A stretch of 64,000 bases of DNA, taken from the NCBI GenBank assembly GCA_022564195.1, contig JADFLW010000001.1:711-64710 (forward strand), read 5' to 3'. Origin of the DNA: Patescibacteria group bacterium. Lineage in GTDB: Bacteria; Patescibacteriota; Microgenomatia; UBA1400; Chisholmbacteraceae. Numbering within the stretch: position 1 is the first letter of the stretch; the number at the start of each line of letters is the position of its first letter. Below the pieces are notes generated by a model that made no database searches, was not told the origin of the DNA, and saw only the letters and a list, made by a program, of their open reading frames with translations. Both the position numbers and the translations under genes were made by a program. Positions 33,491-34,561 of the stretch are shown here, piece after piece.

Positions 33491-34561
33491 CTATCTTCTG
33501 AGGACATTTTCTTCAAACTTCTGTGGCGTTTTTCCTTCCAGTTGGACTTGGTCCAGTGCTAGGCGCATTTTCCATTTTCCATTTTCCATTTTCCATTTTT
33601 CTAGATGGGCTGAGAGGATTTTCAGGCGCTTTTTTCCTGATTTGGATGAAATTATTGTCCAGATGCCGGGCCAGGGATAGAAGGCGCGGATGGCGCGTTC
33701 AAGAAATTCGGCTCGGCCAACCGAAATTTTCTTGGTCGCTAAGGTTCGACTCCGCACATAGCCCTTTTTTTGTTTCGCTAGCCAGGCAGTTTGCCTGGCC
33801 GTCGCTCCCGGCGAAAATTTGTTGGCCTCGCCTTTCTGTTCGCTATCTTCCCATACTTGCCTTAGGCGGGGATTGAGTTGCTCAGGATTAAATGCTTCGC
33901 CCTGCGTAGCTTTCCGGAGAAGGGGCCAAGGGATGAAGCCGTCGTCGCGGGTGAGGCGCTTAGCGTAGGTGGCTTGGGGGTGGTTTTGATCTTTTGGGAC
34001 GATGCGGCCCTCAACCCAGGCTGAAAGGATGGTGATCAAGACTTTAGCACCCGCTGAGAAGAGGCGCTGGTAGAGCGTTTCAGAGGTATCATTGTTGTAA
34101 ATTTCTTCCTCAAATTGGGCAACGATGGGGCCGTGGTCGAACTTCTCATCCATCTGGATGATGGAAAGCCCTGTGACTTTGTCGCCGTTGAGGATTGCGG
34201 CTTCAGCTGGTGAGGAGCCGCAGTATTTCGGGAGGAGTGAGGGGTGCAGATTAAGACAGCCATGCTTGGGATGGTCGAGCACTTCTTTTGGGATGAGTCT
34301 CGCGTAGTCGGCAACGATGCAGACATCTAAGGAAGTAGCTTGGAATTTTTGAAGGAATTGTTTGTCGAGCTTTTCTGGAGCGAAGACGGGAGTGCCGTTC
34401 TCCTCAGCAAAGGTATGTGGCGGGGTCTTGGTGAGGATTTGCTTGCGTCCTACCGGGCGGGGCGGGGCGGTGACGACAAGCTTGATATTGAACGCTGCCT
34501 GCCTGAGAGCTTTGAGGACGGTAAGAGAGTTTTGGGAGGAGCCAAAGAAGGCAACATTCAT
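33491..34561 (-). CDS. fmt: methionyl-tRNA formyltransferase, with ~70 aa extra segment between domains
   Basis: ORF track; NLHPSLLPKYCG..GDKVTGLSIIQMDEKFDHGPIV.. motifs; contains repeat element 33711-33830. Confidence 0.88.
   Translation of the reverse strand: MNVAFFGSSQNSLTVLKALRQAAFNIKLVVTAPPRPVGRKQILTKTPPHTFAEENGTPVFAPEKLDKQFLQKFQATSLDVCIVADYARLIPKEVLDHPKHGCLNLHPSLLPKYCGSSPAEAAILNGDKVTGLSIIQMDEKFDHGPIVAQFEEEIYNNDTSETLYQRLFSAGAKVLITILSAWVEGRIVPKDQNHPQATYAKRLTRDDGFIPWPLLRKATQGEAFNPEQLNPRLRQVWEDSEQKGEANKFSPGATARQTAWLAKQKKGYVRSRTLATKKISVGRAEFLERAIRAFYPWPGIWTIISSKSGKKRLKILSAHLEKWKMENGKWKMRLALDQVQLEGKTPQKFEENVLRR
33565..33599. repeat. tandem heptamer (CATTTTC)x4(+1 imperfect) inside fmt coding region
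   Basis: read directly; encodes ..EKWKMENGKWKM.. on minus strand. Confidence 0.7.
33711..33830. repeat. ~115 bp palindrome-containing repeat element, copy A (inside fmt CDS)
   Basis: aattttcttggtcgctaaggtt..gccctttt..gctagccaggcagtttgcctggcc..gcgaaaatttgttggc; ~75% identity with 40099-40215. Confidence 0.55.

Follow-up and report, generated by a model that had tools for sequence, protein, structure and literature searches.

Protein-coding palindromic elements in Chisholmbacteria-like Patescibacteria: a probable new MITE-like family

The DNA analysed here is a stretch of 64,000 nt (hereafter, the window) of contig JADFLW010000001.1 from a Patescibacteria group bacterium (assembly GCA_022564195.1). 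It carries two copies of a long imperfect palindrome of ~125-140 nt, one inside fmt and the other inside a gene for an O-antigen-ligase-like membrane protein (Wzy_C with TPR; hereafter, wzy), and further copies are found in related genomes. [quoted passage not shown] The family is best described as a new one of protein-coding palindromic MITE-like elements, a kind already known from Rickettsia, and no report of such elements in Patescibacteria or CPR was found in the literature. The two copies, their parts, and their host genes are located as follows (HMM, hidden Markov model).

33491..34561, minus strand: fmt, methionyl-tRNA formyltransferase, 356 amino acids, host of copy 1
33704..33844, minus strand: copy 1, inside fmt (covariance model R1 132.8 bits, E 1.7e-34; nhmmer E 1.5e-35)
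33799..33836, minus strand: 5' arm of copy 1 in host-gene sense, GGCGAGGCCAACAAATTTTCGCCGGGAGCGAC (arm HMM match; pairs with 33708-33744 in RNA folds and pair counts)
33777..33800, no strand: central hairpin of copy 1, GCTAGCCAGGC-AGT-TTGCCTGGCC, stem of 7-8 bp (helix 3 of the pair model)
33708..33744, minus strand: 3' arm of copy 1 in host-gene sense, CCTTAGCGACCAAGAAAATTTCGGTTGGCCGAGCC (arm HMM E 7.9e-09; pairing in folds)
38590..40860, minus strand: wzy, Wzy_C (O-antigen-ligase-like) and TPR membrane protein gene, 756 amino acids, host of copy 2
40093..40231, minus strand: copy 2, inside the Wzy_C/TPR gene, wzy site A (model R1 103.8 bits, E 1.6e-26)
40165..40188, no strand: central hairpin of copy 2, GCTAGCCAGGC-CGA-TTGCCTGGCC (pattern match and RNA fold)

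The two copies align over ~125 nt (33711-33836 versus 40100-40224) with ~75-79% identity and three 1-nt indels. The local alignment score of the pair equals 39, versus a mean of 9.5 for random 250-nt segments of the window (standard deviation 1.3, maximum 17). Patterns derived from the shared blocks match only these two copies in the window (0 matches expected in shuffles), and no third full copy is reported for the 64 kb, either by nhmmer or by the covariance model with filters off. Both copies are identical in two independent assemblies (L001 and L002; loci are numbered with L and proteins with P throughout), and orthologous copies are present in several other metagenomes. Chance or artefact as the origin of the similarity is ruled out by the alignment null, the pattern and HMM scans, and the independent assemblies. 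An earlier description of the window, made from the letters alone (hereafter, the sequence-only reading), had put the identity at ~75%, named the shared blocks, and stated that both host open reading frames (ORFs) stay open across the repeat, all of which agrees with the present results. The repeat that it placed at 33711-33830 and 40099-40215 is real as well, although the element is slightly longer than these limits: the palindrome itself extends over ~33708-33836 in copy 1 and ~40098-40223 in copy 2, and the model matches are longer still (33704-33844 and 40093-40231, respectively).

The element consists of two arms of ~35 nt, which form an imperfect inverted repeat around a conserved AAATT(T/C) core (GAGGGGCG...GACAAATT...), and these arms provide the terminal inverted repeats that are typical of MITEs. 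Read in the sense of the host gene, the order of parts is a G-rich outer stem, the AAATT(T/C) helix, a short GC helix, the central hairpin, a variable stretch, and the 3' arm. The outer G-rich stem varies by subfamily (GGCGAGGCCAAC, GCGCGGGGAGCC, GAGGGAGGGGAAC, and GGGGCGCGCGCGAC). The central hairpin, GCCAGGC-N3-5-GCCTGGC, adjoins the 5' arm and has a stem of 7-11 bp, with 11 bp in two copies from one sample. It is separated by a variable A-rich stretch of ~40 nt from the 3' arm, which reads CCTTAGC-GACCAAG-AAAATTTCGGTTG... As for the length of the arms, the copy in nadD of L013 gives an example of ~35 nt, in which GAGGGAGGGGAACAAATTTCTGCTGGCTG pairs with CAGCCAAAGAAATTTCGTTCCCCTCCCTC.

Every copy forms one long imperfect hairpin, with folding z-scores between -2 and -10 across all 18 full copies known. 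On an alignment of 16 copies, 84.6% of the cells of 29 proposed pairs are indeed paired, compared with 24-53% when the partner column is slid. Changes on both sides are observed in 16 of the 29 pairs, and the observed covariation score is reached in 0 of 500 shuffles. The outer helix is found independently by RNAalifold, the central hairpin (helix 3) is paired in 88% of the cells with compensatory variants in relatives, and copy 1 has Watson-Crick pairs at all 29 modelled positions. Examples of double changes are AAATTTTC/GAAAATTT to AAATTCGC/GCGAATTT in the subfamily of def and nadE, and CAAC/GTTG to CGAC/GTCG between the fmt orthologs of the window and Chisholmbacteria. Folding the element as RNA, which the sequence-only reading had proposed as a check, thus gives a long hairpin with covarying arms for the whole element. 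Mismatches show no strand preference (19 G:U versus 14 A:C), and sense and antisense folds are equally stable (p = 0.15), so that the symmetry looks DNA-level, or is at least not assignable to one transcript.

The two host genes of the window read the element in different frames. The central palindrome is read as GCC AGG CAA ACT GCC TGG in fmt and as GGC CAG GCA ATC GGC CTG in wzy, i.e., with an offset of one, and the frames come together again near AAA ATT, after a 1-nt indel. The in-frame translation of copy 1 is SEQKGEANKFSPGATARQTAWLAKQKKGYVRSRTLATKKISVGRAEF (Fmt residues ~240-286), and that of copy 2, in its different frame, is KSARGANFARRLGQAIGLASRSTKGRPRTTTVSDQKIAALRA. According to the phase of the AAATTT core in the 5' arm, all three frames are in use across copies: AAA|TTT in fmt, AAT|TTT in wzy site A, and CAA|ATT in wzy site B and nadD. 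In the Fmt protein P0005 the middle of the element is read in the wzy-type frame, which means that even orthologous copies differ in frame, and the fmt copy of L004 switches frame inside the element. Since all three phases are used, there is no single conserved peptide. Two claims made from the letters alone, that the two hosts use different frames and that conservation is at the level of nucleotides rather than protein, are thus borne out by the codon-by-codon reading, the third frame found in relatives, and the covarying arms of the long hairpin. Judging from these sequences, the element appears to be translated within the host protein in whichever frame the insertion dictates.

The nearest named relative of the window Fmt is that of Candidatus Chisholmbacteria (59% identity). 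The window protein has 356 amino acids, compared with 314 for the 1FMT chain, and its insert amounts to ~47 amino acids relative to the closest element-free relatives (307-311 amino acids). The excess of ~70 amino acids over Escherichia coli Fmt that had been suggested for the inter-domain region is therefore too high. The N-domain aligns normally to solved Fmt structures, and the AlphaFold model of the window Fmt has a predicted local distance difference test (pLDDT) score above 90 throughout, except for residues 245-280 (below 50), which lie inside the insert at ~240-286. According to this model, the insert is predicted to be a low-confidence loop in the inter-domain linker of an otherwise confident fold. 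The encoded peptide itself probably rides along as a neutral passenger. In the window, the element is hosted by minus-strand genes only. Its orientation relative to the host gene is one and the same in the 17 genic copies (16 full and 1 partial). Because all host genes are co-oriented, gene and chromosome are not separable as the cause of this orientation bias.

Scans of the DNA of relatives and their neighbourhoods by nhmmer and covariance model R1, with sampling centred on fmt, report a total of 18 full copies, spread over 9 sites and at least six related genomes. Full copies are found only in Chisholmbacteria-like Patescibacteria. The similarity thus extends beyond the two loci of the window, and the search for further copies that the sequence-only reading had called for gives a positive answer. 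The occupied sites are listed below; L003 is the locus of Chisholmbacteria.

fmt site: window, L003, L004, L005, L006
def site: L006, L012, L015
nadE site: L003, L013, L015
nadD site: L013
wzy site A: window, L003 (6954-7092, the ortholog of copy 2)
wzy site B: L003 (6605-6746), L094 (532-670)
wzy site C: L094
Apparently intergenic site: L015 18946-19085, with no ORF of at least 40 amino acids over the copy, downstream of an ORF judged RNase HII-like by eye
3' end of a gene cut by the contig end: L012 1-93, a partial copy outside the 18

Four copies are located in 21 kb of Chisholmbacteria, and overall there are 2-4 copies per locus of 20-64 kb. The model scan gives no copy in ~70 fmt neighbourhoods of more distant Patescibacteria (779 kb), and no match to the element is found in plasmids, phages, and viral contigs. 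No copy is present either in ~36 kb of two relatives outside the neighbourhood, a result that is uninformative, as either genome might be a non-carrier. An exact-pattern scan of one genome per GTDB species reports 5 hits, namely two known Chisholmbacteria copies and three chance hits, which are confirmed by neither nhmmer nor the model. The exact pattern covers 5 of the 18 known copies, and 2 of the 4 in the Chisholmbacteria genome. As it catches these two and finds no others, more than a handful of extra copies in that genome is unlikely. A peptide-profile search of 1.84 billion representative proteins adds a single wzy ortholog, which carries two copies, along with a spurious repeat protein. 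A search with concatenated peptides recovers the def and nadD hosts, but is not exhaustive, since proteins with exact matches were missed.

Each of the host genes is also found without the element. In an alignment of 23 Fmt proteins the element stretch is present in five (the window protein, P0002, P0003, P0004, and P0005) and in none of the equally close relatives of 307-311 amino acids, and in a tree of Fmt built without the insert bearers and non-bearers are interleaved. Differences between filled and empty sites are clean for nadE, nadD, and def in protein alignments, and also for fmt and wzy. Insertion polymorphism between related genomes, as known for MITEs, is therefore observed here. 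The alignment of Fmt and Wzy_C homologs, likewise proposed earlier as a check, shows the segment filled in some relatives and empty in others; it is not ordinary coding sequence in all of them. In the window genome itself, the following sites lack a full copy.

30878..31750, minus strand: nadE, element-free in the window genome and filled in relatives (protein alignment; model matches in L003, L013, and L015)
31759..32352, minus strand: nadD, element-free in the window genome and filled in relatives (protein alignment; model match in relatives)
34558..35190, minus strand: def, peptide deformylase, empty site here, with the element at the corresponding loop in L006, L012, and L015 (alignment and model matches)
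40423..40454, minus strand: mini-palindrome remnant GAGAGGGCAGGGAAAAAATTTCTGCCTCCCTC of 32 nt at wzy site B (full copies at this site in relatives; weak model and arm hits)

Similarity between copies does not simply follow the sites. The def copy of L015 is 79% identical to the fmt copy of Chisholmbacteria, with which it shares a run of 50 nt with two differences, and 62% identical to the def copy of L012. The wzy site B copy of Chisholmbacteria is 78% identical to the nadD copy of L013, and the site B copy of L094 is closest to those of wzy site A. These comparisons show related subfamilies in different genes and genomes. Fmt proteins that are sisters in the tree belong to Chisholmbacteria, with its fmt filled and its def empty, and to L015, in which fmt is empty and def is filled with the same subfamily; this pattern is the outcome expected of relocation between adjacent genes. 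The def genes of L012 (1367-1996) and L015 (7699-8328) are ~97% identical except for a patch of ~205 nt with ~55% identity, which covers the element and ~50 nt of upstream host sequence. The patch implies that homologous recombination with divergent alleles carrying another subfamily also shuffles copies.

As for decay, 22 of 25 bases in the remnant at wzy site B of the window agree with the 5' arm of the L003 copy, and they are followed by CTCCCTC, which resembles the 3' end. The remnant corresponds to the outer arms of the Chisholmbacteria copy joined at AAATTTC, which is common to both arms, and this points to an in-frame internal deletion. Judging by this site, elements appear to decay by internal deletion between the AAATTTC repeats of their arms. 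No other AAATTT-centred mini-palindrome is found in the window. The empty fmt site of L015 and the empty nadD and nadE sites of the window hold possible remnants, which are suggestive, though not significant. A lone 13-nt match to the 5' arm of the apparently intergenic L015 copy at 48387-48402 of the window (GACAAATTTGCGC) is at chance level and is not counted. Solo arms, i.e., half copies, are located directly beside full copies in L003 (13790-13828), L015 (18801-18832 and 18897-18926), and L004 (4285-4311), an arrangement that suggests local duplication of parts of the element, or events at the palindrome that were aborted.

RPEs are elements of 105-146 bp with a long stem-loop, terminal inverted repeats, and uncertain target duplication, which are fused in frame into 19 conserved genes and also located in spacers (PMC2229807, PMC10969869). 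Families RPE-1 to RPE-10 and the protein-coding palindromic repeats of Wolbachia are described by Ogata et al. (2000, 2002, 2005), as summarised in PMC2229807 and PMC10969869, and each RPE family is described as encoding one conserved peptide (PMC10969869). The element of the present study is similar in size (125-140 nt versus 105-150 bp for RPEs), in its long stem-loop, and in its terminal inverted repeats. Like RPEs, it occurs in spacers between genes as well as in conserved housekeeping genes, to which it is fused in frame, the copies being located in fmt, def, nadD, nadE, and three wzy sites, plus one apparently intergenic site. In both cases host proteins remain intact, with the insert in a tolerated surface region, no transposase is encoded, and no target-site duplication is settled. 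The differences, however, are also clear. The host phylum is Patescibacteria rather than Rickettsiales, and, compared by description, there is no known sequence relationship. Each RPE family has a peptide in a single frame, whereas this element is read in two or three. Rickettsia conorii has 44 dispersed copies, compared with 2-4 per 20-64 kb locus in one neighbourhood here. Finally, arm complementarity is kept here through many double substitutions between subfamilies. The resemblance to RPEs and MITE-like insertions into ORFs that the sequence-only reading had pointed out is therefore supported as an analogy: the element may work like an RPE, but is not a member of the RPE families.

Other bacterial MITEs (Correia/NEMIS, ERIC/IRU, RUP, intragenic ERIC, and QMITE1 of Coxiella) share with this element the small size, terminal inverted repeats, highly base-paired transcripts, non-autonomous nature, presence/absence polymorphism, and occasional in-frame fusions to ORFs. 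In contrast to them, neither TA nor any other target-site duplication is seen here, no cognate insertion sequence (IS) is found in the loci examined, the copy number is very low, and the arms of ~35 nt are much longer than in most of the listed families. Repetitive extragenic palindromes (REP/BIME), which are mobilised by the IS200/IS605-like transposases called RAYT (REP-associated tyrosine transposases), have in common with the element hairpin repeats, pairing conserved over sequence, and the absence of target-site duplications. REPs are described as extragenic repeats of 20-40 bp with high copy number and GTAG or CGTC heads (PMC3733652). In contrast, the element has ~130 bp, is mostly intragenic, and lacks GTAG/CGTC heads, and no RAYT gene is seen in the loci examined; the REP/RAYT identity is rejected.

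Under the MITE-like and RPE-like interpretation, palindromic DNA elements of ~125-140 bp would have colonised protein-coding genes of the Chisholmbacteria-like lineage, with copies surviving only where the host frame stays open and the landing loop is tolerant. They may spread by short-range transposition ("local hopping") and/or by ectopic gene conversion between neighbouring copies. Such local spread would explain why the hosts are neighbours (def, fmt, nadD, nadE, wzy, and the spacer downstream of the RNase HII-like ORF). Arm complementarity may be kept because both ends are recognised or paired in mobilisation, or by conversion within an element or between copies. The unusual features of the family are the use of several frames, the strong arm covariation, the low copy number, the location in one neighbourhood, and the repeated reuse of the same sites.

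Several observations weigh against this interpretation. The copy number is low, with 2 in 64 kb and only known Chisholmbacteria copies in the species-wide exact-pattern scan, and all known hosts are chromosomal neighbours, unlike those of dispersed classical MITEs and RPEs, although sampling was centred on fmt. No direct repeat that could be a target-site duplication is found at the palindrome ends of 16 copies or in comparisons of filled and empty sites; the insertions are old (hosts are ~60% identical), so a short duplication could have decayed. Neither an autonomous element with matching ends, in ~0.9 Mb of related loci, plasmids, phages, and viral contigs, nor a transposase gene flanked by solo arms, in ~0.9 Mb of loci, is found. 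Recombination or ectopic gene conversion, rather than transposition, clearly contributes part of the pattern. Orthologous copies are 60-82% identical in nucleotides, versus 36-49% for third codon positions of the hosts, and this excess, together with the arm pairing kept by compensatory changes, could reflect selection on structure. Just as well, the misfits with a plain MITE may stem from local hopping, recurrent conversion between copies, and conversion inside the hairpin.

Among the rival explanations, a selected cis-acting structured RNA or DNA element of one gene neighbourhood, with the peptide as a by-product, is considered unlikely; an RNase III-type processing or stability determinant of these mRNAs and a protein-binding or cruciform site would be examples of its role. 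It would account for the identity of orthologous copies, which equals or exceeds that of essential host genes and greatly exceeds that of third positions, as well as for the extensive compensatory changes, the low copy number in a single neighbourhood, the reoccupation of the same sites by different subfamilies, and the shared orientation of the 17 genic copies. However, the lack of strand asymmetry fits a DNA palindrome better than a one-strand RNA, and with co-oriented hosts the orientation bias is not attributable to the gene over the chromosome. Furthermore, neither the hairpin loops nor the 40-nt spacer is conserved in sequence, for each site there are close relatives with an intact host gene and no element, copies decay to remnants, and there is neither an Rfam match nor a promoter or terminator signal. 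Rather doubtful as well is the alternative that the element is a conserved nucleic-acid structure domesticated in coding regions of the def-fmt, nadD-nadE, and wzy neighbourhood, and not junk. If this were true, the ~30-bp hairpin would act in cis, for example as a target of a double-strand-specific RNase that sets mRNA levels, or else as a site at which a cruciform forms or a protein binds, with a role in local recombination or in the organisation of the chromosome, and cells would tolerate the encoded loop to keep the structure.

Protein-level selection on a shared basic loop of ~45 amino acids in several enzymes, with nucleotide similarity as its consequence, is very improbable. Copies in the fmt frame do share (N/D)KF..A..R.KAW...KKISV in fmt, def, nadE, and wzy site C. 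The other frames, however, give ANFARRLGQAIGLAS in wzy site A and EGGEQISAGWIG in wzy site B and nadD, the L004 fmt copy switches frame, and one copy is apparently intergenic; AlphaFold assigns the segment a pLDDT below 50, and the peptide profile finds almost nothing in 1.84 billion representative proteins. The probability is close to nil that there is no family at all and that the two window loci coincide because of an assembly chimera or a single ectopic gene conversion between fmt and wzy. The window does contain only two copies, 6.4 kb apart, and recombination patches do occur around the element. This explanation is contradicted by the identical copies in independent assemblies and by the orthologous and paralogous copies at nine sites in several genomes and unrelated samples. 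A family of MITE-like, RPE-like protein-coding palindromic elements thus remains the probable explanation.

Several other origins and functions were considered and rejected. A tRNA-like origin might be suggested by the T-arm-like GGTTCGACTCC of the fmt copy, which, however, is not conserved elsewhere, and nothing is called there by ARAGORN or Rfam. As for known structured RNAs (Rfam 15), only four tRNAs of the window pass the gathering threshold, and the element gives an 11-bit chance match in a permissive scan. Scans for terminator or promoter function give results at or below chance. Selection on the hairpin related to Dcm/CCWGG is not supported either, since the window has a normal content of CCWGG and as many GCCWGGC sites as expected. 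A template/variable repeat pair of a diversity-generating retroelement is rejected because mismatches are of all kinds and accompanied by indels, and the copies lie in internal loops of housekeeping enzymes; no reverse transcriptase is present in the gene tables of the loci. L015 contains an IS481-like (rve) element just upstream of def (6464-7596) and an IS30-like element between def and fmt (8888-9925). Neither qualifies as a parent, as their inverted repeats and ends are unrelated to the element. An rve transposase is also located near wzy in L094.

The window contains a second, unrelated repeat, which forms tandem arrays of 3-5 units of the heptamer AGCGTYW, all on the plus strand, at 7309-7341, 10576-10594, 34717-34749, 48502-48534, and 51939-51971. 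With up to 3 mismatches, 13 overlapping matches are reported versus 0.09 expected, and among the loci examined exact matches are found only in contigs of this genome. One array (34717-34749) is part of def, where it encodes DAKRLTLTERNER and coincides exactly with the loop at which relatives carry the palindromic element. Another palindrome, of 45 nt, is present in two copies with 78% identity (12529-12573 and 24149-24193; TCCTTTTT...GCGCTCCGGCCGGAGCGC...AAAAAGGA) and looks like a shared bidirectional terminator-type hairpin. Several internal direct repeats (D2, D7, and D16) with spacings of ~470 and 1230 nt are located at 7485-9093, which suggests tandemly duplicated paralogous genes or domains. 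The GC skew is positive over the whole window (1-64000) with no change of sign, and no replication origin or terminus is located here.

To our knowledge, palindromic repeats that code for protein have until now been viewed as an oddity of Rickettsiales. Their independent occurrence in Patescibacteria would mean that the phenomenon recurs in another group of bacteria with small genomes and little intergenic DNA, and that inserts of ~45 amino acids, in whichever frame, can be accommodated by essential enzymes (Fmt, Def, NadD, and NadE, for instance). In practice, gene calls and protein alignments of CPR genomes are inflated and distorted by inserts of this kind. Being small and well resolved, with filled and empty sites, remnants, subfamilies, and a recombination patch, the family is well suited to the questions of how such elements move when no signature of a transposase is visible and why their hairpin is preserved.

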